Positions 8,652 through 20,062 of a stretch of 34,775 nt of DNA are shown here, in pieces. The translations under genes and the position numbers were made by a program. This stretch comes from an uncultured Candidatus Saccharibacteria bacterium (GTDB lineage: Bacteria; Patescibacteriota; Minisyncoccia; UBA6257; GWB1-50-10). Numbering within the stretch: the first letter of the stretch is position 1; every line of letters begins with the position of its first letter. The DNA is taken from positions 1-34,775 of the forward strand of contig CAYIEJ010000001.1 in assembly GCA_964362455.1 (NCBI GenBank). The letters are read 5' to 3'. Under the pieces are notes generated by a model. That model did no database searches. It saw only the letters and a program-made list of their open reading frames with translations, and was not told where the DNA came from.

Positions 8652-10085
8652 TTATTTACCCCCACTTGAATTACCGAGAAGTAAAGAATTTATAAATTGT
8701 CTTGTCATTGGTCCAAAATAGCCTGTGCCCTTTATAAGATTCAAGGGTGCAAGAATTTCCTGCCAATTAATTTCTTGAAATTTTGTAACCGCTGCTTTTG
8801 TTAATGGCCCGAAATAATTAGTTTCGTTGCCAGGCGAACCGGGATCCGCGGTTTCGGTTAGCTTGAAATTTGAAGCGTTTAAAAACTTCTGCAGAGCCAG
8901 AATGTCGTTGCCTTTTATGCCTAAATAAAGGTCGCGGGTGAAGAGAGTTACGGTTGTTTGGGTTAGCGGCGTTGAAGTGGTTGTTGGATCGGTTGAGGTG
9001 GGGGTCGTGCCTGGCAGTTCAGCGATTTCTTGAATTAAATTGATAGTGTCTGTTGCTATATCAGAAATATTGGAATAAGCATCTCGGAATTTAACATACA
9101 CAGTTTTCAAACCTGTACCTGGTGATAAAGACCAATATTTTATCGTTATAAAATCCTCCCAAGGCGCGCCTTCAAAATCATCTCTGTTTGAAATCATCAT
9201 TTGAATACCGTTAGAACTGATGCCAAGCGCTAATACAACTTCGGTTATTGTTGTATTTTCTGCGCCTTCATTGATAAGAACTGTTGGATTGGTTGGCGCG
9301 CTGGCGTAGCCTGTGCCACTACTGCCTCCGGTTTGTTGGATGGCTTCAGTTTGAAAATTCAGTTCATTAGACGTTACGGCGTTGCCGGCATTATCACGGC
9401 TTGTTACTACAAAATAGTAAGTGGTTCCCGATTGTAAATTAGAGAGAACGATGCTGTGATCTTGCGATAGTGTGGCGTCAGATTCTTCCAAAGAATATGC
9501 GCCTGACGCAGTGCTGTATCGTACTTTTGAATCAGACGCTTCATTAGTGGTCCAACTCACAAGCGCGCTCGTATGGGTGATAGCTGAAGCAAATGGATTG
9601 GCCGTGATGGTTGGCGCGGTTGTGTCTGGCGGCGGAGGGTTTACGGTTATTGTCCAAGAGCAAGAAGCAACATCAGCTGATGCCCGTGGTTGAAATAATG
9701 TTGTAGTTTCGACTAAAGGATAAGAGCAGGCTCTTGTGGCAATGTTATTTGCGATAGCGATATTGACTCCGGCATCACTAAGATCGCATTTTATTAGCGC
9801 TTGATTAGTGCCAGCTGGCAGATTTGAAAAAGTCGCAGTTATTTGGGAATTAAATGGTCCGGTGCCAGAATTTGGGTTGGCTCCCAACGTACAACTAGCG
9901 GGTGGTGGCGGGCTTTGATCGGGATAACCACTACCACCACTGTCTCCCCCTTCGATAGGCAATATCGCCAATAAATATGTTTTTATTGGTATGTTAAGTT
10001 TATCGGCAATAAAAACAAATAAAATTATTAGAATAAATAAAACTAGTACTATCTTAGTCATTAATCTTTTACTCTTTTCTGTCAT
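8652..10085 (-). CDS. Secreted or membrane-anchored protein with a fibronectin type III domain and a C-terminal peptidoglycan-binding domain
   Basis: 477 aa with an N-terminal TM anchor. FN3-like segment: ALVSWTTNEASDSKVRYS...GTTYYFVVTSRDNAGN. C-terminal PG_binding_1-like repeat: GNDILALQKFLN...FGPLTKAAVTKFQ. Confidence 0.7.
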   Translation of the reverse strand: MTEKSKRLMTKIVLVLFILIILFVFIADKLNIPIKTYLLAILPIEGGDSGGSGYPDQSPPPPASCTLGANPNSGTGPFNSQITATFSNLPAGTNQALIKCDLSDAGVNIAIANNIATRACSYPLVETTTLFQPRASADVASCSWTITVNPPPPDTTAPTITANPFASAITHTSALVSWTTNEASDSKVRYSTASGAYSLEESDATLSQDHSIVLSNLQSGTTYYFVVTSRDNAGNAVTSNELNFQTEAIQQTGGSSGTGYASAPTNPTVLINEGAENTTITEVVLALGISSNGIQMMISNRDDFEGAPWEDFITIKYWSLSPGTGLKTVYVKFRDAYSNISDIATDTINLIQEIAELPGTTPTSTDPTTTSTPLTQTTVTLFTRDLYLGIKGNDILALQKFLNASNFKLTETADPGSPGNETNYFGPLTKAAVTKFQEINWQEILAPLNLIKGTGYFGPMTRQFINSLLLGNSSGGK

Positions 10086-10123: not shown

Positions 10124-11788
10124 CTAAAACGGAAGATTCATTATTGGTTTTTTTATTGGCGGTGGAGAATAATCAGTGACACTAATAGTAATAATTTCTG
10201 AATCAGAGCCGCCGCGGCCGTCTGTTGCGTTAAACGTAACGTTATACTGGCCAGAATCGCTATAGGTTGGCCGCCATCTGAAAATGCCTGTTTGCGCGTC
10301 AAATGAGAACTGGCTTGGCAGAACACTTACGGCATCAGTGGAATAAGTCAGTGTATCGCCGTTTCCATCAGTGGCGCTTAAATCAATCGTAAGCCATTGC
10401 GCTTCTTGCGTTGATTTATTTCCGATAGAAGCCATAACTGGCGCGATGTTTGTAGTAAGAGCGTTATAGGCATTGATACGGCCACCTTCAATTGCCGGGA
10501 AACCCGTGACTGGATCAGAAGTGTCAATCAATGCTTGTCTTATTTGACTTGCTGCAAGCACCGCGTTTGGTCTCGAAAGCATTAAACCGATAACGCCGGC
10601 AACAATTGGGGTGGAAAAAGAAGTACCGCTTCCACCGACGTAACTGTTATTTAAATAAGGCATAGAGATTCCATCTCCTGGTGCGGCAACATCAACCCAA
10701 GTTCCATAATTCGAGAAACTTGTTTTAGTGTCGGTCCAATCGGTAGCCGCAACCGCTATTACCTCATTATGGGCTGCTGGGTATACATAAGTTGAATTAT
10801 TATAATTACCAGCCGCAGCGATTAAAACGGCGCCGGCATTATATGCATCGGTTACGCCTTGTAGTAAGAGAGAATAATTGCTTGTAAAAGCCGCACTTAC
10901 TAAAATAACATCCGAGAAATTAGGGTTTTCTGGAATGCCCACCATTCCTGTGGGATTATTGACAGCAAATTCAAGTGCTGAGTAAACAGCACTTAGACTC
11001 ATGGCACCTTGACCGGTGGTACCACGCCAGCCGGCTTTAATCGGTAAAATCATACAGTTGGGACAAGTACCCGCTATTCCTAAACCATTGTTAGTTGCGG
11101 CACCAGCAATGCCGGCGACTCCGGTACCATGGCCGTAATCATCTTCTGGAGTAAAATCGTTATAAAGCGCGTCCCACCCCGGCAAAAGTTTTCCCACTAA
11201 ATCTTCGTGTGTCGATTCTACGCCAGTATCAATTATGGCGATTACTGTGGAAGAATTGCCGGTTTCAATATCCAAAGCTTCGGGTGCATCAATATCAGCA
11301 TCTGGTGTCCACCCCTCTGCTTGGCCGGTATTATGAAGACCCCACTGTGTTGTGAAATATGGATCCTCCGGCATCATTGCGAGAACGCCAATAAAATTTG
11401 GTTCAGCAATAAAGACAAACGGATTATTTTTTACTGAATCGGCAACAAGTTGTGGGTCGGTTTTTTCGTCAAACTTTAAAGTTAGAAATCTCTTACCGTG
11501 GGGCGAAATGCTTTTTTCAAGATTATTATTATGGAGTTTTTCAACAGAATCAATGGAAACCGGACTTGATGCTTTGATTGAAGATATTAATTCTTCGTCG
11601 CTTAAATTGCTTTCACGTGTTAAAACCAAAAGTTCGCCCGGCACAAATGGATTTTCATTTATTTGGATTTGAGGCGGCAAAATTTGGAGCGGCGCCGCTT
11701 GAATAGGAGTAGTAATTAAAACGATTAAAAGAATAGGAATTATTCCGAGAAAAACCGGGCTTTGTTTAATCTGTTTAAACCTGCCCAT
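10124..11788 (-). CDS. Secreted subtilisin-family (S8) serine protease with a C-terminal Ig/cadherin-like domain
   Basis: 554 aa with a signal peptide (...TTPIQA/AP). Asp-His-Ser triad contexts are IAIIDTGV, HGTGVAGIAG and GTSFSTPIVAG. C-terminal module: DGNGDTLTYS...NATDGRGGSD. Confidence 0.88.
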   Translation of the reverse strand: MGRFKQIKQSPVFLGIIPILLIVLITTPIQAAPLQILPPQIQINENPFVPGELLVLTRESNLSDEELISSIKASSPVSIDSVEKLHNNNLEKSISPHGKRFLTLKFDEKTDPQLVADSVKNNPFVFIAEPNFIGVLAMMPEDPYFTTQWGLHNTGQAEGWTPDADIDAPEALDIETGNSSTVIAIIDTGVESTHEDLVGKLLPGWDALYNDFTPEDDYGHGTGVAGIAGAATNNGLGIAGTCPNCMILPIKAGWRGTTGQGAMSLSAVYSALEFAVNNPTGMVGIPENPNFSDVILVSAAFTSNYSLLLQGVTDAYNAGAVLIAAAGNYNNSTYVYPAAHNEVIAVAATDWTDTKTSFSNYGTWVDVAAPGDGISMPYLNNSYVGGSGTSFSTPIVAGVIGLMLSRPNAVLAASQIRQALIDTSDPVTGFPAIEGGRINAYNALTTNIAPVMASIGNKSTQEAQWLTIDLSATDGNGDTLTYSTDAVSVLPSQFSFDAQTGIFRWRPTYSDSGQYNVTFNATDGRGGSDSEIITISVTDYSPPPIKKPIMNLPF

Positions 11789-11861
11789 CTTAATATTCCA
11801 TCATACTCCTTTTCGACTCTTTGTCAAGGGCCAGGGTGTGCACAATTCAGTTAGGCAAACC

Positions 11862-11931: not shown

Positions 11932-12453
11932 TTAGAACTTATTGTTTTGGGAGTTTTTTCTCTTTAATCCTTTTTCTAATTTATTATTTATTTTCTGTGA
12001 GTACTTCTCGAGCGGATTAAGACCAACCTTTTTTCTTCGGCTGTTAATCATCTTTTTATCTTTAATCGGAAACAACTCGAGTTTCTGCCCAACTCGTCTG
12101 AACTGTGTTCCGTATAATTGCCTGCCTTCTCGTTTGATAAGAATCCTATCAGTCAGAAAGGCCTCATCTTTTTTACTGAAGCAGCACCTTTTGAGACAAG
12201 CTTTTTGAAGTTCAATGTCAAAATCTTGATGCTGAATTAATAACCAAAAATTGTGCAACCCCCCCTTTCCTATAAGTTTCAAATTAGGATAGCCGTATAG
12301 TTCTATTATTTTTTTTATTCGATAATTATGAACCCAATCAATAGCATAAATTAAAAAATTTATTGGGCCCCGCCCTCGTTTTGCCTGCCCCCGCAAATCT
12401 TGATCAACTTTATACATTTCGTTGATCTGTTTTGCTAAAGTTTTATTTATCAT
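11932..12453 (-). CDS. Hypothetical protein (173 aa, basic C-terminus)
   Basis: Clean ORF with no motif I can assign. It starts immediately after the terminator of the ATP-grasp gene. Confidence 0.55.
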   Translation of the reverse strand: MINKTLAKQINEMYKVDQDLRGQAKRGRGPINFLIYAIDWVHNYRIKKIIELYGYPNLKLIGKGGLHNFWLLIQHQDFDIELQKACLKRCCFSKKDEAFLTDRILIKREGRQLYGTQFRRVGQKLELFPIKDKKMINSRRKKVGLNPLEKYSQKINNKLEKGLKRKNSQNNKF

Positions 12454-12454
12454 G

Positions 12455-12488
12455 AAATATAAAAGGGAATAGAAGAATCTCTATTCCC
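12455..12488 (-). terminator. Rho-independent terminator closing the graspetide mini-operon
   Basis: Perfect 9-bp stem GGGAATAGA/TCTATTCCC (12465-12473 / 12480-12488) with a 6-nt loop, followed on the minus strand by UUUUAUAUUU. Confidence 0.75.
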
Positions 12489-12497
12489 ATTCTAATA

Positions 12498-13460
12498 TCA
12501 AATGAGTAGATCTGCAATTGCTTTAGCGATTTCCATGTTGGTCCGTAGTTGTACAAAATACCATTGACCGTTTGGATTAACCTCTAAAAATATATATTCA
12601 CCTGAAGGGGTCACAATCATATCAATGCACCCATATTTAAGCTCCATCTTTTTCATAAAGGAGAAAATTTTACTTACAACCTCTTCGGGCAATACCGTCG
12701 GTTCCATTTTTACATCAAAGTCATTAAGCTTTGGTTTTCTCCGCCAATCGACCGCCGTTTCTTCGTCTTGCTGCGAGAGAATTTTCACGGGGAAAATTCT
12801 ATCACCAACTACAGTAATTCTGAGCTCATAACCTTTAGGAATGTTTGCCTGAAATATCGAGGGCGAAAATCTAACAGAATCTATATTATCCATCTGTTCC
12901 GGTTTTACCCGATTTGTATAAACTACGTGGTCAAGAATCGGACTAGCGGCAAATAACTTAACTATAATATCTCGCGAGTGTGTCTCAAAAAAATCCCGTA
13001 CTTGATCGGGACTAGACGTAATAAGCGTATTAGGGACCGTAAATCCGCATTCCACGGCAACACAAAGTTGATAAATTTTATTTTCAGCCGCAAACGCCGT
13101 CCAAGAATCATTTATCCATTTTTTATGGGAGAGTAGGGTCCAGAGTGCGCGCCCCATTTCATCAAACTGACGATGGATAAACTGTCGATGTTCTGCTGGT
13201 TCATATTGTAGTAGTTCTCTAGGTAAATGCGGATGCATATACCACACAGTAGAGAAGATATCTGTATCGTATTTGACGTTATCTATCACTACGAAATATC
13301 GCGGCTTGCCGTCAATAACTTCAAAAGTGAGGTAATCGTCTTCCAAGCATTTATCTTGTTTAAAAAGTATAGCATTTTCGCCGCGCCTGCCGAGTTCTTC
13401 TAAAACCAATTTGAATGCCGCTACCTCATAAGAACCAGAATTTCCGATTGCAAGTATCAT
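12498..13460 (-). CDS. ATP-grasp peptide ligase of the graspetide/microviridin type (MdnC/MvdD-like omega-ester macrocyclase)
   Basis: About 320 aa. Blocks resemble MdnC as I recall it: FSPSIFQANIPKGYELRITVVGDRIF, AVDWRRK, YGCIDMIVTPSGEYIFLEVNPNGQW. The ATG at 13460 has AAAGGAG 6 nt upstream, so I prefer it to the track start at 13466. Confidence 0.85.
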   Translation of the reverse strand: MILAIGNSGSYEVAAFKLVLEELGRRGENAILFKQDKCLEDDYLTFEVIDGKPRYFVVIDNVKYDTDIFSTVWYMHPHLPRELLQYEPAEHRQFIHRQFDEMGRALWTLLSHKKWINDSWTAFAAENKIYQLCVAVECGFTVPNTLITSSPDQVRDFFETHSRDIIVKLFAASPILDHVVYTNRVKPEQMDNIDSVRFSPSIFQANIPKGYELRITVVGDRIFPVKILSQQDEETAVDWRRKPKLNDFDVKMEPTVLPEEVVSKIFSFMKKMELKYGCIDMIVTPSGEYIFLEVNPNGQWYFVQLRTNMEIAKAIADLLI

Positions 13461-13501
13461 CGTCATCTCCTTTCAGTGTGCTTTGCCGAATCCCAATTAT
13501 T

Positions 13502-13530
13502 AAGGGGGAGAAAATGAGTTTCTCCCCCTT
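13502..13530 (-). promoter_or_regulatory. Strong intercistronic hairpin between the precursor and ATP-grasp genes
   Basis: Perfect 12-bp stem AAGGGGGAGAAA/TTTCTCCCCCTT with a 5-nt loop. There is no clear U-tract after it on the minus strand. Confidence 0.7.
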
Positions 13531-13541
13531 AGACCTCACTT

Positions 13542-13643
13542 TCAGGCGCTGTCGTAACAATCGATGTCATCGTAGGTGCCTGTAGTCGTGGGAGAAAACG
13601 CACCTTCCCGCTTTTCCAAGAAATGTAGGATAAACGGCACCAT
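13542..13643 (-). CDS. Graspetide precursor peptide (33 aa), absent from the ORF track
   Basis: Hand translation gives MVPFILHFLEKREGAFSPTTTGTYDDIDCYDSA. A purine-rich SD (AAGGAAGGGGGTGA) lies about 10 nt upstream. The leader has a PFxxxFL motif like the microviridin PFFARFL recognition motif. The core is rich in Thr/Ser donors and Asp acceptors. It lies directly upstream of the ATP-grasp gene on the same strand. Confidence 0.8.
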   Translation of the reverse strand: MVPFILHFLEKREGAFSPTTTGTYDDIDCYDSA

Positions 13644-13723
13644 TTGTGTTACTCACCCCCTTCCTTATTGGGTTTTCGAGGTTCTGCGATAAAGGTAGGC
13701 AATCCTTTGCTATTTGTCAAATT

Positions 13724-13755
13724 AAGTAATTTTATCGCGGTTTTCGCTATGTTTT
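13724..13755. repeat. Copy B of the 32-nt imperfect direct repeat (partner at 11862..11893)
   Basis: See copy A. It lies 81-112 nt upstream of the precursor ATG on the minus strand. Copy A lies 74-105 nt upstream of the S8 protease ATG. Confidence 0.8.
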
Positions 13756-13784
13756 TTAGTTTTTATTATCTACAATTGTGTTAT

Positions 13785-14594
13785 ATGAAGCGGTTTCGTT
13801 GTATTATCCCAAAATTAGAAACCCGGAATTCGCGTGAGATTTTTATGCTCTTCTCTGCTATGAATTTAATGGGTTACAACGAAGAAAATAATCCTCGCGG
13901 CATGTCAGATGAAAGAAAACGTGTGAGAAATGTTCTGCGTGCATATGACTGGCGGAATAAATATCCGCGCCTCGCTAGTGTTATCAAAAAACATCACCCA
14001 TGGTATCTCGTGCGATGGATACTTTTAAAAGATAAACGCCTTTCTGATTTAGAAAGGTTTGCGCAAGAAAAAGATGTCCAAAAGCAGTGGAATGAATTAA
14101 AGATACGTTTCAAACAAAAGACAAAAAAAATTGCCACCATATTTGAAAGAGAGACGAATCGACTTATAACTTTTATTGGCACGCCGCCGAAGCAACTCAA
14201 GAAAATTATACTTATCGTCAATCCCCTTGATGCTTATTGGCGAGGATACGCTTTTAACATTAAGGGTACCGGTTATATCATTGTCGGTCCTGAAGCCGAG
14301 AAAAATGGTGGCCGACTTATCAGACATGAACTTTTGCATCTTTTTACGCCCACAATTCAAATTTCTAAAAACATAATTGTCGATCAACGCCATAGACGTT
14401 TAATTGCTCAAGGATATGGCAGTAATAGTGCCATCAAAAATGAATATGTGGTTCGTAGTTTAAATCTCCTTTACCAAAGAGGGATATTAAAAAAGAATAT
14501 CTCGCAAGCCATTAAAAATGAAGAAAATGACTTCCCTCACATTAGGAAAGTTATGCAGATTATTATGGTGAAATTAAAGCGGGGCGTCCGGTAA
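13785..14594 (+). CDS. Hypothetical HExxH protein (putative zinc metallopeptidase), HELLH
   Basis: The ORF contains GGRLIRHELLHLF. I prefer the ATG at 13785 (MKRFRC...). The track start at 13644 is a TTG that would overlap the divergent precursor gene and its upstream region. Confidence 0.6.
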   Translation: MKRFRCIIPKLETRNSREIFMLFSAMNLMGYNEENNPRGMSDERKRVRNVLRAYDWRNKYPRLASVIKKHHPWYLVRWILLKDKRLSDLERFAQEKDVQKQWNELKIRFKQKTKKIATIFERETNRLITFIGTPPKQLKKIILIVNPLDAYWRGYAFNIKGTGYIIVGPEAEKNGGRLIRHELLHLFTPTIQISKNIIVDQRHRRLIAQGYGSNSAIKNEYVVRSLNLLYQRGILKKNISQAIKNEENDFPHIRKVMQIIMVKLKRGVR

Positions 14595-14629
14595 TTCATA
14601 AAAATATTTTCAGGGCAGATTTTAATGAA

Positions 14630-14833
14630 TTGGATAGCGAATTTTTCAGTAAAGTAGTCAATCCTTTACTTACCATTTCTGTTATCAATGATGTTGCGAG
14701 GAGTTGTGGTAGATTACGAGAGATTGAAATTTTAAAGGAAATTGAACGATTCTGGACTGAAGGCAAAAATATTTTTATTGTGTATGGTCAAACACACGCT
14801 GTGATTCAAGAGCCGGTCTTAAAAACATTGTAA
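14630..14833 (+). CDS. Doubtful small ORF or gene fragment (67 aa, TTG start only)
   Basis: The frame is open from 14546 with no ATG and no recognisable RBS. It may be a remnant of a larger gene. Confidence 0.25.
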   Translation: MDSEFFSKVVNPLLTISVINDVARSCGRLREIEILKEIERFWTEGKNIFIVYGQTHAVIQEPVLKTL

Positions 14834-14889
14834 AAGATTATATAAGATTTCAGATTATTTGAGTGTATGGAACCTTTTAATAATTCAAA

Positions 14890-15369
14890 GTGAAAAAGAG
14901 TTATAAAAAAATAGTAAATACTTTTAGAAAGGTAGTTTGTACGCTCAATCGAATAGGAGTTGAACCAGTGATTTATGGATCGTTGGGCTTGCATCTTCTG
15001 ACTGGTAAAAATGTAAAAATAAATGATATCGATTTTCTTCTTCAAGATTCTGATTTCGACCGGAAATGGGATGATATAAAAACAATTCTAGAAGCAGATT
15101 ACTGCAAACTAGATCCGAAACATAAACAAGAATTTAAGTGCCAGGATTTGTTTGTATCTTTTTTGAAGATTAAAGACGTTTCGCAACTTACCAAAATTAA
15201 TTTTTCAAGATTGAAAAAGTATAGATATGGCGGAGGAATATATCGTAATTTAAACCCGAAACAATATTTAGATTTTTATGAAAAAAGATCTAAAAAAAGG
15301 AATAATTCAAAAATAAAAAGGAAAAAGGATTTAGAGAAAATTGAATTAATTAAAAATTATTTGAGCTAA
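14890..15369 (+). CDS. Nucleotidyltransferase-fold protein (Lnu/aminoglycoside-NTase-like minimal NTase)
   Basis: 159 aa with a GTG start. The segment VEPVIYGSLGLHLLTGKNVKINDIDFLL matches the GS...DxD pattern of pol-beta-superfamily NTases. Size is similar to lincosamide nucleotidyltransferases. Confidence 0.5.
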   Translation: MKKSYKKIVNTFRKVVCTLNRIGVEPVIYGSLGLHLLTGKNVKINDIDFLLQDSDFDRKWDDIKTILEADYCKLDPKHKQEFKCQDLFVSFLKIKDVSQLTKINFSRLKKYRYGGGIYRNLNPKQYLDFYEKRSKKRNNSKIKRKKDLEKIELIKNYLS

Positions 15370-15412
15370 TAATCAGCAAATTATCAAATTTTGCTATATA
15401 ATTAAACGATCC

Positions 15413-16057
15413 ATGCTTTATAAGCTAAATCTGAACGAGATCAGAGATAAGTCTATTGAAAGAACCTTTCGTGAATCAATGAAAGAGTTCAGTAAATTTT
15501 ATGGCATCAACTGGATAAAAAACACGCCAAAAATTATCTTTCTTCAAAATAGAAAATCAATTAATTTATTACGCGGTCAGAAAACCGAACCGTGGCTAGT
15601 TGGCTGGGCTAATGACAAAACGCGAATAATTTTTATTCTGGACCGAGATAATTTTGAAAAAGAAAGTTGCCATAAATATTCTAAGGAACGCTATTCCGTT
15701 TTAATTAAACACGAGCTTAGTCATTTATTTTATTATATACTTTCCGGCGCTATGTACACTCCAAAATGGTTGGTTGAGGGTGTGGCAATTTTTACCGCTG
15801 GTCAAAATAAATTTAAGAAAAAGCCTGATAAATTCAAAAGTTTCTTGGCATTTGATGACAAGGCCACCCCTGGAGTATATGCGGAATCAGGTTTCGTTAT
15901 TGAAACGCTAGTTAAAAAATTCGGTAAAAATAAATTAATAAAGTTAATTAAATCGTTGCGAGACGTATCTAACAAAGAGCAATTTAATAAAATTTTCCAA
16001 AAAATTTATGGGTTTAAAATGGGTTATGAAGTCATGAATAAATATTATAAAAGTTAA
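15413..16057 (+). CDS. Peptidase MA-like gluzincin (HELSH ... EG), putative zinc metallopeptidase
   Basis: 214 aa. VLIKHELSHLFYYILSGAMYTPKWLVEGVAIF gives HExxH plus a downstream Glu in an EGxA context, typical of Peptidase_MA_2-like domains. Confidence 0.65.
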   Translation: MLYKLNLNEIRDKSIERTFRESMKEFSKFYGINWIKNTPKIIFLQNRKSINLLRGQKTEPWLVGWANDKTRIIFILDRDNFEKESCHKYSKERYSVLIKHELSHLFYYILSGAMYTPKWLVEGVAIFTAGQNKFKKKPDKFKSFLAFDDKATPGVYAESGFVIETLVKKFGKNKLIKLIKSLRDVSNKEQFNKIFQKIYGFKMGYEVMNKYYKS

Positions 16058-16076
16058 TTTCAAACCAGATTAATAT

Positions 16077-16547
16077 TTATTCATTTTTTAGAATCTTTAG
16101 AATCGTATTAACTACAAACTCCTTTTGTAAATGTTCGATATTATACTTTTTGATAAATGGTTCAAGCATTATATGGATCATTTCGTGCATAATAGTATTT
16201 ATTGCATCGAGGTGAGTGTTAAGGTTAATAGTAACAGTATTATTACTCGCGTTATAAAAACCGAGCGGTCCATAATTTGAAATCTCAACAGTAAATTTGG
16301 TTTCTCCCGGTTCGTGAAAAAAGACAGATAGTCGTTCTGTAAACCCCCGTTCTCTCTTGGCCCACTCTATTTCAATCCATTTTTTGTAACTTTCATATTT
16401 TTTCGTATCGTATTCCTCTTCCACGGTTTGTTGAGGCCAGGTGAATTTTATTTTGTTGGTTTTTAAAAACTCCATGTTCCTTCGAACCATATCAAAAATA
16501 TCTTTTTCTCGTTTAATGGAACAAATGATAAATTTTACGTTTGGCAT
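16077..16547 (-). CDS. SprT-like / minimal zincin HExxH protein (HEMIH)
   Basis: 156 aa. NNTVTINLNTHLDAINTIMHEMIHIMLEP resembles the SprT/WLM-type strand, helix and HExxH arrangement. Confidence 0.55.
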   Translation of the reverse strand: MPNVKFIICSIKREKDIFDMVRRNMEFLKTNKIKFTWPQQTVEEEYDTKKYESYKKWIEIEWAKRERGFTERLSVFFHEPGETKFTVEISNYGPLGFYNASNNTVTINLNTHLDAINTIMHEMIHIMLEPFIKKYNIEHLQKEFVVNTILKILKNE

Positions 16548-16581
16548 ATTAATAATTATTCTAAATTAATAGAAAAATATA

Positions 16582-16633
16582 AAGGCGGAGAGAAGTGATT
16601 CTCCCCGCCTTAGCGGACGAAACGATCCGCTAC
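16582..16633 (-). terminator. Tandem hairpins: orphaned terminator downstream of the dnaJ 3' remnant
   Basis: Minus strand shows UAGCGGA-(8)-UCCGCUA (7 bp), then AAGGCGGGGAGAA-(4)-UUCUCUCCGCCUU (13 bp including one G-U), followed by UAUAUUUUU. The second stem is fully paired only on the minus-strand transcript. Confidence 0.7.
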
Positions 16634-16638
16634 GCATT

Positions 16639-16680
16639 TTACAGTTCTTTATCTAAATCTTCCAAGAGTTTTTTGGCTTT
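16639..16680 (-). pseudogene. dnaJ: Remnant of a dnaJ 3' end (last 13 codons plus stop)
   Basis: 39/42 nt identical to 20084..20125. It encodes [13 protein letters not shown], the same as the live dnaJ. An in-frame TAA sits immediately upstream, so it is not part of a functional gene. Confidence 0.8.
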
Positions 16681-16776
16681 GTCTTACGAAGTCCGACTTC
16701 ATAAAATCAGTCCTTCCGCTTTTTATCCGATCGTTTTCTTTCTATCATTGGCGAGTTAATGAATTATTTCCAAAAA

Positions 16777-16805
16777 TTCACAATTTTATTTTAGCCTGCT
16801 ATAAT
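16777..16805 (+). promoter_or_regulatory. Sigma70-like promoter TTCACA-17-TATAAT giving a leaderless mRNA
   Basis: The -10 TATAAT at 16800-16805 ends 6 nt before the ATG at 16812. There is no SD, and no alternative downstream Met lies near the N-terminus. Confidence 0.55.
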
Positions 16806-16811
16806 AGTTAT

Positions 16812-17702
16812 ATGCATTTATCAATAAAAATTTCTCGCCTATCTAATTTTTTATTTTTTATTCAAAAAACAGATGGATATAATTTAATTAACTCTGATTT
16901 ACGAAAATGTTTATCAGATGAAAAATTCAGTCTGTCTTTTTATGGAAAAAGCAAAAATAAAATTTGGAGACAAATTGAAAAAACAATCGGAAAAGAAAAC
17001 GCAAAACAAGTAAAAAAATCTATCGTTTCGCTGGAGCCAGTCTTTACTTTGTATTGGCGTAAAACATCCGAGCATTTACTTTCATGGAAGCGGTATTTTC
17101 AAAATAATCAGTTATTATTTCAACATATTATTCTTGAGGTAAAGAAATTAAGCGGAATAAAACATTCGGCAGCTTCTAACATTCCGATTTATTTTGTTTC
17201 TGATCCCGTGAGTAATGATAAAGAAATTAACGCGTGGTTTTCTTGGACGCCAAAAGAAAGTTTTATAATCGTTGAAATTCCGTTTAGCCTTAAGACGTCT
17301 AATCACTTTTTCCCGCTGGCTGTTTTAGCGCATGAATTTTTCCATTTAATGTTGAGAAAAAATAAAAATCTACTTTTAAAAATTATTAAAATTACCAAAG
17401 AAAACGACAAATTATTTACAGAGCTAGCAGAAGGTATGCCAAATAGAATATTCCTGGAAGAATTATTAATCAGTTCATTTATTCCGGAGGGTTATTTAAG
17501 CGAGAAGTATTTCAACGCGAAAATTATTTCTCATATTTTAAAACCAAAAAGTTTATTAACGTGGCGAAAGTTTGTCGCGTTTAAATTAAGACGGACGACA
17601 AAAGCATATATTGATAATCTTCAGTGTATTGATGAAAAATACCTTAAAGATTTAATAAAAGTTATCAAAGAAAATACAAAAAATAGCCCCTCCAGAGTTT
17701 AG
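16812..17702 (+). CDS. Hypothetical HExxH protein (putative zinc metallopeptidase), HEFFH
   Basis: 296 aa containing FPLAVLAHEFFHLMLRKN with a downstream ELAEG. Very AT-rich. Confidence 0.6.
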   Translation: MHLSIKISRLSNFLFFIQKTDGYNLINSDLRKCLSDEKFSLSFYGKSKNKIWRQIEKTIGKENAKQVKKSIVSLEPVFTLYWRKTSEHLLSWKRYFQNNQLLFQHIILEVKKLSGIKHSAASNIPIYFVSDPVSNDKEINAWFSWTPKESFIIVEIPFSLKTSNHFFPLAVLAHEFFHLMLRKNKNLLLKIIKITKENDKLFTELAEGMPNRIFLEELLISSFIPEGYLSEKYFNAKIISHILKPKSLLTWRKFVAFKLRRTTKAYIDNLQCIDEKYLKDLIKVIKENTKNSPSRV

Positions 17703-17734: not shown

Positions 17735-17902
17735 TTACTTTCTGTTTGCCCAGTGGCCCTTATCCCAAGGACCTTTGTCCCAAGCCTTGTCCCAGAGTTT
17801 CTCTTTGCCTGAAGTCTGCATAGCAGCTTCTTTTTTTGCCTGAAGCAAAACCCGTGGAACGGGATTAGGATTTGCCTTTATGGCAGGAGTGTTATTCAGC
17901 AT
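17735..17902 (-). CDS. RiPP precursor candidate with a C-terminal (WDK)x3-WAN repeat core (55 aa), absent from the ORF track
   Basis: Hand translation gives MLNNTPAIKANPNPVPRVLLQAKKEAAMQTSGKEKLWDKAWDKGPWDKGHWANRK. GGAGG lies 8 nt upstream of the ATG. It sits 42 nt downstream of the rSAM/SPASM gene on the same strand and is followed by a terminator. The three WDK units use different codons (GAC/GAT, AAG/AAA), so the repeat is conserved at the peptide level. Confidence 0.75.
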   Translation of the reverse strand: MLNNTPAIKANPNPVPRVLLQAKKEAAMQTSGKEKLWDKAWDKGPWDKGHWANRK

Positions 17903-17944
17903 GGTTTTCACCTCCTTTCGCTGAGTGGTTTGTTTTACTTTTGG

Positions 17945-19039
17945 CTACACAAGACCATACGATCTTATTTTAGCCGAAACATGCTCAAAGTATCTCCTGA
18001 GACTTCTACAGATCTCGTCTATTGGCTCAACTGCATCGACTTGCTCATAGCAGTCCTTTGCGCAACCTCCTTTGCAGATTAAATACCAATTACATGTTTT
18101 ACAACGTTCTTTCCTCTTTCTCAGTAGCTCTCGAAAACTTTGCAAACATGAATTGGATCTAACCACCGCTGATTCATCCAGTACGTTGCCAAAGCGTAGA
18201 GCGTCTGTCTTTGGAAAAGAATCGCAACCGTAAATTGAGCCGTCGGAATAGACAGTGACGAATTGATCGCATTGTCCCATGTAGATGCATTCACGTTTAT
18301 TCCCGCCGAGAATCAAATTAACAACACTTTGAATGTCTCGGATTTCAACTTCCGGATCATCTAGCTCTAGCCAGCGATCGAAGATGGCGATCATGAAATT
18401 GGTGTATTGTGCTGGTGAAATTACCAGTGACGATACATTGTTGCAATGACCGATATTCTTCACTCTGGCAAACTTTAACTTTTTTATGTTCTCCGTAATA
18501 AAAAAGTTGAAAACTTCTTCTGGGAATCTATGATTGACAGTGCTTACACCGCAGATAACCCCGTTGAAGATTTCGGCCTGGCGCAATAAATCAATGCCTT
18601 TCATAACCTCATCGTGCGACCCTCTGCTGGTAGAGTAGTGGCGAACTTGATCGTGTAATTCCTTCGGTCCATCAAGACTCACGCCGACGAGGAAATCGTT
18701 TTCGGAGAAGAAGCGTGCCCATTCTGAAGTAATGAGAGTGGCATTTGTTTGAAGAAAATTGGCTATCTTCTTTCCTTGTTGTTTCCATTGGCATTGAAGT
18801 TCCACTACCTCGCGGTAAAATTCTAGTCCGGCAAGTAGCGGCTCTCCTCCATGCCAAATGAACTCAACATCGTCCTGATCGCGACAGAAGAAATCAATCA
18901 TCGCCTTCAATACTTCGGGGCGCATACGATTTCTGACGATATATTCTTTGAGCCCGGAAGTATAACAATACGAGCAGGACAAATTGCACGTCCCGTTGAC
19001 TGGCTTGACAATTGGAGTCGAGACTGACTGGTAAAACAT
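17945..19039 (-). CDS. Radical SAM enzyme with a C-terminal SPASM domain (peptide-modifying maturase candidate)
   Basis: CNLSCSYCY (CxxxCxxC), GGEPLLAG, and auxiliary-cluster cysteines CIYMGQC...GC and CKTCNWYLICKGGCAKDC (the CxxCxxxxxCxxxC SPASM signature). The ATG at 19039 has AAGGAGG 8 nt upstream, so I prefer it to the GTG at 19048. Confidence 0.88.
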   Translation of the reverse strand: MFYQSVSTPIVKPVNGTCNLSCSYCYTSGLKEYIVRNRMRPEVLKAMIDFFCRDQDDVEFIWHGGEPLLAGLEFYREVVELQCQWKQQGKKIANFLQTNATLITSEWARFFSENDFLVGVSLDGPKELHDQVRHYSTSRGSHDEVMKGIDLLRQAEIFNGVICGVSTVNHRFPEEVFNFFITENIKKLKFARVKNIGHCNNVSSLVISPAQYTNFMIAIFDRWLELDDPEVEIRDIQSVVNLILGGNKRECIYMGQCDQFVTVYSDGSIYGCDSFPKTDALRFGNVLDESAVVRSNSCLQSFRELLRKRKERCKTCNWYLICKGGCAKDCYEQVDAVEPIDEICRSLRRYFEHVSAKIRSYGLV

Positions 19040-19112
19040 TGCAATCACCTCCTTATCTGAACGTTGTAAAAGAACGCTCTAGAAAATCACTATGATTTTT
19101 TTTACTGTACTT

Positions 19113-19155: not shown

Positions 19156-20062
19156 TCAATAGCTTGTAATCACCTGATAGCGTATGTACATGACATATTC
19201 AAACAATCCCAATCTCCCTCGTGTGAGACGCGAGGCAGTAAACTTCGTCCTTCGAGGATATAGCACAAGAGAGGCCGCAAGACATTTCGGATACAGCCAA
19301 GGAGCAATCGTTAAGTGGTTGAAACGAGCTCCGGCGAATCGAAGAACGCTCATTCAAACTCTTTCCTCAAAACCTCATCATCATCCGAATGAAATTGATA
19401 AGGAGATCGTGTATCGGATTCTCGAATTGAGACATGAGCGCAATGAATGCGCTGAAATCATCCATCACAAATTGAAGAAAGAAAAAATCATTGTCTCCCT
19501 TTCCTCTGTAAAAAGAGCTTTGAAGCGTCATGGGCTCATCTATCCCTCCAAATGGAAGAAATGGCACAAGTATCCGCCAAAACCAATACCGGAGAGACCA
19601 GGCGTACTCATACAAATTGATTCAATGCGAGAAGGCGTGCCCCAAGAATGCCTTCACGCGTATGCTTTGATTGATGTTTGCTCAAGATGGGGGTATGTCG
19701 AGGCCACAGAGAAAATTTCAACTCATTTGAATGCCCACTTTCTTCAAAAAGCTCAGAAGAAGTCTCCTTTCACATTTCAAACCATTCAATCAGATCATGG
19801 CCAAGAATTCTCAAAATGGTTCACGAAGAAATGTTTGAATTGCGGTTTTGCTCATCGCCATTCAAGAGTGAGGACACCAACAGATAATGCTCATGTGGAA
19901 AGATTCATTCAAACTTTTCAGAAACAATGTCTGAATCGTGTGCCTCGTTCAATCAATGCTTGGAGGAAGGAAATTCCTGATTTCCTTAAATGGTACAATA
20001 CTGAAAGGCCGCATATGGCATTGGGGATGAAAACGCCAGCCGAAGTGATTACAAGCTATTGA
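19156..20062 (+). mobile_element. IS481-like insertion sequence (907 bp, single rve-type DDE transposase)
   Basis: Perfect 18-bp terminal inverted repeats: TCAATAGCTTGTAATCAC at 19156-19173 and its reverse complement at 20045-20062. A single ORF fills the element and its stop codon lies inside the right IR. Confidence 0.8.
19184..20062 (+). CDS. DDE transposase (HTH plus integrase-core rve domain)
   Basis: 292 aa. DDE contexts are VLIQIDSM, IQSDHGQEF and DNAHVERF. Also carries the characteristic YNTERPHMALGMKTPAEV tail. Confidence 0.88.
   Translation: MYMTYSNNPNLPRVRREAVNFVLRGYSTREAARHFGYSQGAIVKWLKRAPANRRTLIQTLSSKPHHHPNEIDKEIVYRILELRHERNECAEIIHHKLKKEKIIVSLSSVKRALKRHGLIYPSKWKKWHKYPPKPIPERPGVLIQIDSMREGVPQECLHAYALIDVCSRWGYVEATEKISTHLNAHFLQKAQKKSPFTFQTIQSDHGQEFSKWFTKKCLNCGFAHRHSRVRTPTDNAHVERFIQTFQKQCLNRVPRSINAWRKEIPDFLKWYNTERPHMALGMKTPAEVITSY

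Follow-up and report, generated by a model that had tools for sequence, protein, structure and literature searches.

The window analyzed here, the whole 34,775-nucleotide stretch shown above, derives from a groundwater Patescibacteria genome (candidate phyla radiation; Hainich groundwater well H43, 0.1-µm filter fraction) and very probably contains a minimal biosynthetic module for a graspetide, or omega-ester peptide. The conserved unit consists of three genes, which encode a 33-amino-acid (aa) precursor peptide, an ATP-grasp ligase and a DUF6624 protein. In the window, they are arranged together with two stem-loops as follows:

11932 to 12453, minus strand: DUF6624 protein, 173 aa (Pfam PF20329, 2.6e-18)
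12455 to 12488, minus strand: intrinsic-terminator-like hairpin and T-run directly after the ligase stop (10-bp stem, 4-nt loop, tail TTTTATATTT)
12498 to 13466, minus strand: predicted graspetide synthetase (ATP-grasp macrocyclase), 322 aa, assigned from NCBIfam, PDB matches, structure prediction with Foldseek, and invariant residues
13501 to 13531, minus strand: stem-loop with a 13-bp G+C-rich stem, between the precursor stop and the ligase start (centroid −21 kcal/mol, z −2.19)
13542 to 13643, minus strand: precursor peptide gene, 33 aa (MVPFILHFLEKREGAFSPTTTGTYDDIDCYDSA; leader MVPFILHFLEKREGA(FSP), core TTTGTYDDIDCYDSA)
13652 to 13665, minus strand: Shine-Dalgarno-like purine run (region of AAGGAAGGGGGTGAG) 8 nt before the ATG of the precursor, read from the sequence

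A first-pass annotation of the window had proposed a graspetide ligase with an unannotated precursor adjoining it, and both are supported by profile, structure and comparative searches. The ligase blocks YELRITVVGDRIF, DWRRK and CIDMIVTPSGEYIFLEVNPNGQW are all present in the 322-aa open reading frame (ORF). Among NCBIfam models, this protein scores highest with the graspetide maturases MvdC (221 bits), GRASP_SAV_5884 (210) and MvdD (198), followed by grasp-with-spasm (126) and rimK_fam (41, against a cut-off of 143). Full-length sequence matches in the PDB were obtained with MdnB (1.3e-45), AMdnB (2.3e-45), MdnC (8e-38) and CdnC (5e-35), and weaker ones with PruB (entry 9bou, 8e-23) and PsnB (1e-6). 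An AlphaFold2 (AF2) model built from 39 homologues reached a mean predicted local distance difference test (pLDDT) score of 90.9. In a Foldseek search with this model, ranks 1-32 are all occupied by graspetide synthetases, namely CdnC, AMdnB, MdnC, PruB, MdnB and PsnB (E values from 5e-30 to 1e-17, template modelling (TM) score up to 0.87), while RimK first appears at rank 33 (E 7e-14, TM 0.65). In the 39 homologues, the residues of the Mg/ATP motif are invariant (K170, K211, R216, D240-W241-R242, E295 and N297). At E < 1e-10 there are 328 homologues with a top identity of 64 %, and those with a source name all come from Patescibacteria or candidate-phyla metagenome-assembled genomes.

A housekeeping ligase of the RimK or glutathione synthetase type, preceded by a spurious ORF, would be the simplest alternative. 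Several homologues are indeed named 'glutathione synthase/RimK-type ligase-like ATP-grasp enzyme' by JGI, and RimK is the sole Pfam match of the ligase above threshold (24.8 bits). The chance that this explanation is correct is nevertheless negligible: it is refuted by the NCBIfam scores (198-221 bits for the graspetide maturases, rimK_fam far below its cut-off), the PDB sequence matches, the Foldseek ranking and the conservation of the precursor, whose ORF is kept in 62 versions that differ in the manner of a coding sequence. The grouping of the ligase, a point on which the first-pass annotation had made its proposal depend, is thus with graspetide synthetases and not with RimK, and both sequence and model indicate that the 322-aa enzyme is a graspetide synthetase.

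The 33-aa ORF is omitted from the public (ENA) gene calls for the contig, and a look-up returned neither names nor accessions for the proteins of the window. A stop codon (TGA) lies four codons 5′ of its ATG, so the precursor cannot be longer, and a spacer of 75 nt separates it from the ligase. In the six reading frames of the window, the leader and core patterns each occur once, together, directly upstream of the ligase. For comparison, 26 family loci were assembled from genome and metagenome collections, i.e., the window and 25 fetched loci. The same peptide adjoins the ligase in 22 of them. The remaining four are L011 and L025 (two copies of one locus with an N-terminally truncated ligase), L024 (a short contig with a truncated ligase) and L026 (a contig starting at the ligase). 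A profile search built with the long-leader forms of the alignment added 54 called peptides that fit the family profile, and the resulting set comprises 62 unique sequences. The conservation of the small ORF upstream of homologous ligases, also raised at the outset, is therefore well documented. Among the precursor genes, pairwise nucleotide differences are distributed over codon positions 1, 2 and 3 as 28, 22 and 50 %, and all synonymous codons are in use for the invariant Gly, Asp and Thr of the family. This bias, together with the synonymous codon use, argues for a genuine protein-coding gene under purifying selection.

The 62 distinct versions share the pattern PFILxFLE-x3-GA-x3-T-T/S-S-G-x-Y/W-x3-D-x2-D. 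In window numbering, and with some positions counted over 57 sequences, F4, G22 and D31 are present in 62/62, G14 in 57/57, T19 and D28 in 61/62, and position 20 is T or S in 62/62. Conservation is lower at P3 (57/62), E10 (51/57), A15 (48/57), D26 (50/62) and position 24 (Y or W in 54/62). T19 follows the leader motif after a spacer of exactly 9 residues in 57/62. GGAGG-type sites occur 6-9 nt before the start codon in L001, L004, L006, L010, L017 and L023, where the start codon itself lies at the PFIL motif or at most 3 codons from it. With the window included, a ribosome-binding site positions the translation start 0-3 residues before PFIL in at least seven loci. Other loci are extended at the N terminus by 6 to about 27 residues, which are not conserved. 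On account of these ribosome-binding sites and the unconserved extensions, the functional leader spans only about 17 residues. Its PFILxFLE motif agrees with the Phhx(1,2)h signature described for graspetide leaders (PMC8939145).

A few members depart from the common pattern or arrangement. In L018 (800-892), Lys replaces the near-invariant Thr19 (AVKTSGTYGDIDSADTN), which could allow a lactam, and in protein P0187 Asn replaces Asp28. The gene order in L014 (3277-5241) is ligase, DUF6624, precursor, and in L016 (3300-4960) about 600 nt separate the precursor from the ligase downstream of it. In L011 (6001-7184) and L025 (4001-5184), both from Saccharibacteria, the ligase homologue has no N-terminal pre-ATP-grasp domain, with a match that covers residues 108-321 only. 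No precursor is found upstream of it, DUF6624 still adjoins it, and the module could be in decay or have been repurposed.

By homology with MdnC, CdnC and PsnB, the ligase would bind the short leader helix PFILHFLE, the counterpart of PFFARFLE in microviridins, and the invariant Gly14, usually followed by Ala15, may serve as a hinge or mark a GA-type cleavage site. The enzyme would then use ATP to phosphorylate side-chain carboxylates of Asp, and the resulting acyl-phosphates would be attacked by Thr hydroxyls to form side-chain macrolactones. The core contains 4 Thr, 1 Ser, 4 Asp, 1 Cys and no Lys, exactly as first counted, so a Lys lactam cannot form in the window's product. An ester-only core served by a single ligase and distinct from the classical microviridin core, as originally suggested, is consistent with the family alignment. 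The Cys, on the other hand, had been presented as a feature of the core, and its position holds Cys in only 15 of the 62 sequences. The expected number of dehydrations, first put at two to four, can be narrowed to two or at most three: only T19, T/S20, D28 and D31 are invariant or nearly so. Two esters are predicted, either nested or crossed, from the donors T19 and T20 to the acceptors D28 and D31, which would make the 13-residue C-terminal core bicyclic. In most members, including the window, S/T21 or T23 could form a third ester with D26.

The arrangement of two adjacent Thr donors and two downstream acidic acceptors recalls plesiocin (group 2; hairpin-like bicyclic TTxxxxEE core), the product of PsnB, and this analogy suggests a nested two-ester hairpin for the window product. 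In plesiocin, however, the acceptors are adjacent Glu residues and the core is repeated, whereas here they are Asp residues spaced by two positions in a single core, and PsnB is a distant relative of the ligase by sequence. As to the biological role, the default assumption is protease inhibition, which is known from other graspetides. The conservation map yields T19, T20, G22, D28 and D31, in addition to G14-A15, as targets for mutagenesis.

Several points weigh against this interpretation. The ligase remains under every NCBIfam graspetide cut-off (221 vs 425 bits for MvdC, 210 vs 350 for GRASP_SAV_5884, 198 vs 475 for MvdD), and the Pfam match to the MvdD pre-ATP-grasp domain reaches 24 against a gathering threshold of 27. 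Because of these scores, the ligase belongs to no characterized subgroup of graspetide synthetases. MdnC and MvdD are ester-forming enzymes, MdnB and MvdC amide-forming ones, and by sequence the closest solved relatives are the amide-forming MdnB and AMdnB, despite the Lys-free core. The first-pass designation of the ligase as MdnC/MvdD-type has to be dropped, since the enzyme is no closer to that pair than to MdnB/MvdC and the sequence scores slightly favor the latter. A scan upstream of the precursor returned no sigma-70-type promoter or recognizable −10 element; a −35-like TTGACA is seen by eye at 13715-13720. The ring number and connectivity proposed above are read from conservation alone. 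No exporter or dedicated protease is encoded.

The similarity to microviridins (group 1; MdnA with MdnC and MdnB, or MvdE with MvdD and MvdC) deserves closer consideration, as the module could be a true microviridin cluster whose accessory genes were lost. The ligase shares its fold with the microviridin ligases, which are its nearest solved relatives by sequence, and the same ATP-dependent side-chain ester chemistry would be expected. The leader consensus PFFAxFLExQ of microviridins parallels PFILxFLExR of the window family, with PF(F/I)(A/L)xFLE common to both. Between PFILHFL of the window and PFFARFL, the residues P, F, F and L, and then E, are shared; the two look homologous without being identical. 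Makarova et al. also place an orthologous ligase beside cyanobacterial microviridin-type ligases in their table (PMC8939145). Several differences stand against this origin. The microviridin core TxKYPSDx(D/E)(D/E) is replaced by TTSGTYxDIDxxD, and Lys occurs in only 2 of the 62 family cores. Microviridin clusters contain two ligases and usually a GNAT and an ABC transporter, whereas the window has one ligase and DUF6624 instead of these accessories. In agreement with the first-pass annotation, neither GNAT nor ABC transporter was found in a scan of the 34.8-kb window that covered ORFs of at least 100 aa; the scan returned no C39 peptidase either. The ligase also falls far short of the MvdC and MvdD equivalog cut-offs, and the architecture with DUF6624 is stable in more than 25 loci, which marks the module as a distinct family rather than the remnant of a decayed cluster. 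A microviridin origin by gene loss therefore has very little to recommend it, and a separate graspetide family remains the preferred assignment.

The stem-loop between precursor and ligase is another recurrent element. A strong hairpin is found at this position in 11 of the 11 loci examined, with unconserved sequence and in several cases a T-run. In principle, the small ORF could be an upstream ORF for attenuation, which would act with this hairpin on ligase expression and would not be a substrate at all. The ubiquity of the hairpin and its frequent T-run speak for this view, to which only a small probability can be granted. Selection acts on the residues typical of a graspetide precursor (the PFxxxFLE helix motif and Thr and Asp at fixed spacing), and the precursor located downstream of DUF6624 in L014 or about 600 nt upstream of the ligase in L016 is incompatible with attenuation. 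In addition, hairpins after precursor genes are common in operons for peptides that are made by ribosomes and modified after translation (RiPPs), where more precursor than enzyme transcript is the usual arrangement. In a precursor–ligase operon, the stem-loop at 13501-13531 is probably a partial terminator or an mRNA stabilizer that sets the ratio of precursor to enzyme.

The second hairpin (12455-12488), described in the first-pass annotation as the terminator bounding a two-gene operon, is real: its folding z-score is −3.17, 1 of 200 shuffled sequences folds equally well, and a hairpin with T-run likewise follows the ligase in L003, L004, L005, L007 and L008. The two-gene boundary does not hold, as it misses the DUF6624 gene, whose ATG lies 2 nt past the hairpin. 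DUF6624 accompanies the ligase in 24 of the 26 family loci in varying orientation. It is mostly co-directional and immediately downstream of the ligase, overlapping the ligase stop in L010, whereas L001 and L002 have it on the opposite strand at a distance of 1.5-2.5 kb. It is missing from two loci, one on a contig that ends at the ligase and the other on a contig of 1.8 kb whose ligase is truncated. No gene family outside the module occurs in more than 4 of the 26 loci.

Ten polar residues of DUF6624 are invariant (R21, D39, Q74-H75, Q83, D102-R103, Q112 and T116-Q117). Its AF2 model is of high quality (pLDDT 95.4), but nothing in the PDB resembles it significantly in fold (best E 1.9, TM < 0.4); sequence and profile searches of the PDB and a search of defence-system models likewise gave no match. 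The family as a whole comprises 12,568 cluster representatives at E ≤ 1e-3, far more than the graspetide-linked members. Homologues (P0206-P0354) frequently contain two- or three-fold tandem copies, and fusions were found with an M28 peptidase plus OppC-like permease, DJ-1/PfpI, an esterase, AhpC/thioredoxin, DUF4440 and DUF3455. Many family members have signal peptides or lipoboxes; no signal peptide is evident by eye in the window protein and the candidate-phyla members. Conceivable roles for DUF6624 are those of partner protein, tailoring enzyme, leader peptidase or immunity factor.

The most serious qualification of the simple ester-forming scheme is that ligase and precursor might need DUF6624, either for chemistry beyond simple esters or because the ligase is inactive alone. 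This is a real possibility, if not the favored one. It draws on the presence of DUF6624 in nearly all loci, whether co-directional, convergent or displaced, on its ten invariant polar residues, and on the lack of a signal peptide evident by eye in candidate-phyla members. There is also a precedent for a graspetide synthetase that depends on a partner, and the authors of the same study consider DUF6624 a potential new biosynthetic enzyme (PMC13097080). Conversely, a terminator-like hairpin parts DUF6624 from the ligase in many loci, the very large and diverse family would be no less compatible with a general role in binding or immunity or as a hydrolase accessory, and the fold matches no enzyme. 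In its stronger form, in which DUF6624 is an obligate third component, as a partner for ligase activity or as a new tailoring or leader-removing enzyme, the idea is put forward tentatively and is rather unlikely. If it were true, the chemistry of the mature product or its mechanism would be new to graspetides. In either case, the near-universal link makes the function of the domain testable.

The module is also found outside the candidate phyla. Three distant members, with ligases 47-48 % identical to that of the window, are located in L093 (4822-6515), L094 (4832-6515) and L095 (1597-3280), one of them on a 6.25-Mb contig. All have a precursor of the form ...KPF(I/V)LxFLTYRKG...TTTGTxxDxDxxDN(S/T), a ligase and a convergent DUF6624 gene. 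They are surrounded by genes of conjugative or integrative elements, which encode a TrwC relaxase, a TraG-like coupling protein, ArdC, RadC, a Toprim primase and Fic. The same three parts among conjugative-element genes outside the candidate phyla show that the module is horizontally mobile. That the three-gene unit moves between Patescibacteria of ultra-small size and conjugative elements in bacteria with large genomes is, taken jointly with an obligate DUF6624, a speculative proposal with the odds against it.

The window is one more member of a predicted, uncharacterized family that is present in two published bioinformatic catalogues, and the novelty implied by the first-pass annotation was overstated. 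Makarova et al. (2022, Biol Direct 17:7, PMC8939145) reported graspetide clusters in candidate-phyla bacteria. Their cluster1865 consists of three near-identical precursors from Candidatus Giovannonibacteria (...LPFILGFLEYREGAMAPTTCGIITDIDAYDAA; consensus MEKVDLKQTKEQEPTRQLPFILGFLEYREGAMAPTTCGIITDIDAYDAA) with a 320-aa ATP-grasp protein. It belongs to the same precursor family as the window peptide, to which it is 64 % identical, and this exact peptide is encoded in L016 beside a ligase 59 % identical to that of the window. The associated 'cluster 23' protein is DUF6624, as judged by its QH, DR and QxYGTQ motifs (PMC8939145). There are also differences. The cluster1865 peptides measure 49-52 aa, whereas the 33-aa window peptide has no N-terminal extension, and the Giovannonibacteria locus contains an additional ATP-grasp (Branch 2) and an additional precursor (cluster1874), neither of which is present in the window. 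The published set covers one lineage, with no analysis of donor and acceptor conservation.

The second catalogue, by Carter, Ramesh, Saad, Mubarik and Mitchell (2026, ACS Chem Biol, PMC13097080), defines 43 graspetide groups. The experimentally uncharacterized group 42 contains 22 clusters, many from candidate phyla, and DUF6624 is its sole recurrent neighbor, present in 82 %. The window family matches both the candidate-phyla origin and DUF6624 as essentially the only co-occurring protein. The representative core of group 42, FTTHGTPNDPDSGGTD, has TTxGTxNDPD in common with L006 (TSSGTYNDPDASD), L007 and L093, whereas its leader PLILDRL and longer spacer are unlike the PFILxFLE leader of the window family. 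Precursors of the group 42 type (PLILDRL / TTHGTPNDPD) were not found in 67 more distant loci (L026-L092). The window ligase is considered only a candidate member of the group 42 sequence-similarity cluster (alignment score 70).

The papers searched contain no experimental work on the window precursor family or on DUF6624, and the graspetides of candidate phyla have so far been predicted, with none made or tested. To the existing predictions, this analysis adds a family-wide conservation map (two to three esters, Cys dismissed), conserved RNA hairpins, a near-obligate link to DUF6624 with its orphan fold, and a module travelling on conjugative elements. With a precursor of 32-33 aa, a leader of about 17 aa, one ligase and one partner, the family is well suited to a first experiment. 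Patescibacteria live on other cells and their genomes are tiny, so a module for peptide maturation that they have kept probably matters for how they interact.

The graspetide module has the same G+C content as the host (0.39) and is part of an accessory stretch at about 8.6-20 kb of the window. The remainder is ordinary chromosome, with genes for penicillin-binding proteins, mraZ/mraW, rplJ/rplL, dinB, dnaK/dnaJ/grpE and tRNA synthetases. Other features of the accessory stretch are:

8652-10085, minus strand: fn3 / peptidoglycan-binding protein, downstream of DUF6624, not conserved near homologous ligases
10124-11788, minus strand: S8 subtilase with Ig-like C-terminal domains, downstream of DUF6624, with its own strong promoter-like site at 11800-11827
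13785-14594, plus strand: HExxH protein (IRHELLHLF)
15413-16057, plus strand: HExxH protein (IKHELSHLF; Peptidase_MA_2)
16077-16547, minus strand: HExxH protein (IMHEMIHIM)
16812-17702, plus strand: HExxH protein (LAHEFFHLM)
17735-17911, minus strand: 58-aa ORF ending in ...LWDKAWDKGPWDKGHWANRK, immediately downstream of the radical SAM/SPASM gene
17945-19048, minus strand: radical SAM/SPASM peptide-maturase-like gene (NCBIfam anaerobic sulfatase maturase 285, DynA 270 and GrrM/OscB 178 bits, all below cut-off)
19184-20062, plus strand: insertion sequence (IS)-type transposase (rve integrase core and helix-turn-helix)

The S8 subtilase was considered as leader protease or target of the product. 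It is found in no homologous locus and has its own promoter-like site, and it is treated as unlinked. Four small proteins with HExxH zincin motifs are encoded near the precursor (13785-17702), in a stretch of low G+C content (0.30-0.32 vs about 0.40). Only the Peptidase_MA_2-like one recurs, in 4 of the 26 loci, and their association with the module is weak.

A second RiPP-like locus occupies 17735-19048 on the minus strand. The repeated Trp-X-Lys units of its 58-aa ORF presumably resemble precursors of cyclophane-containing peptides ('triceptides'), and no similar peptide (WDK-type) was found in the other fetched loci. Relatives of the radical SAM/SPASM gene near family loci are only about 20 % identical, and it is regarded as belonging to a separate locus, not to the graspetide module. 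The IS-type transposase lies at the edge of the accessory stretch, which is situated between rplJ and dnaJ, and a relative of it is present in L006.

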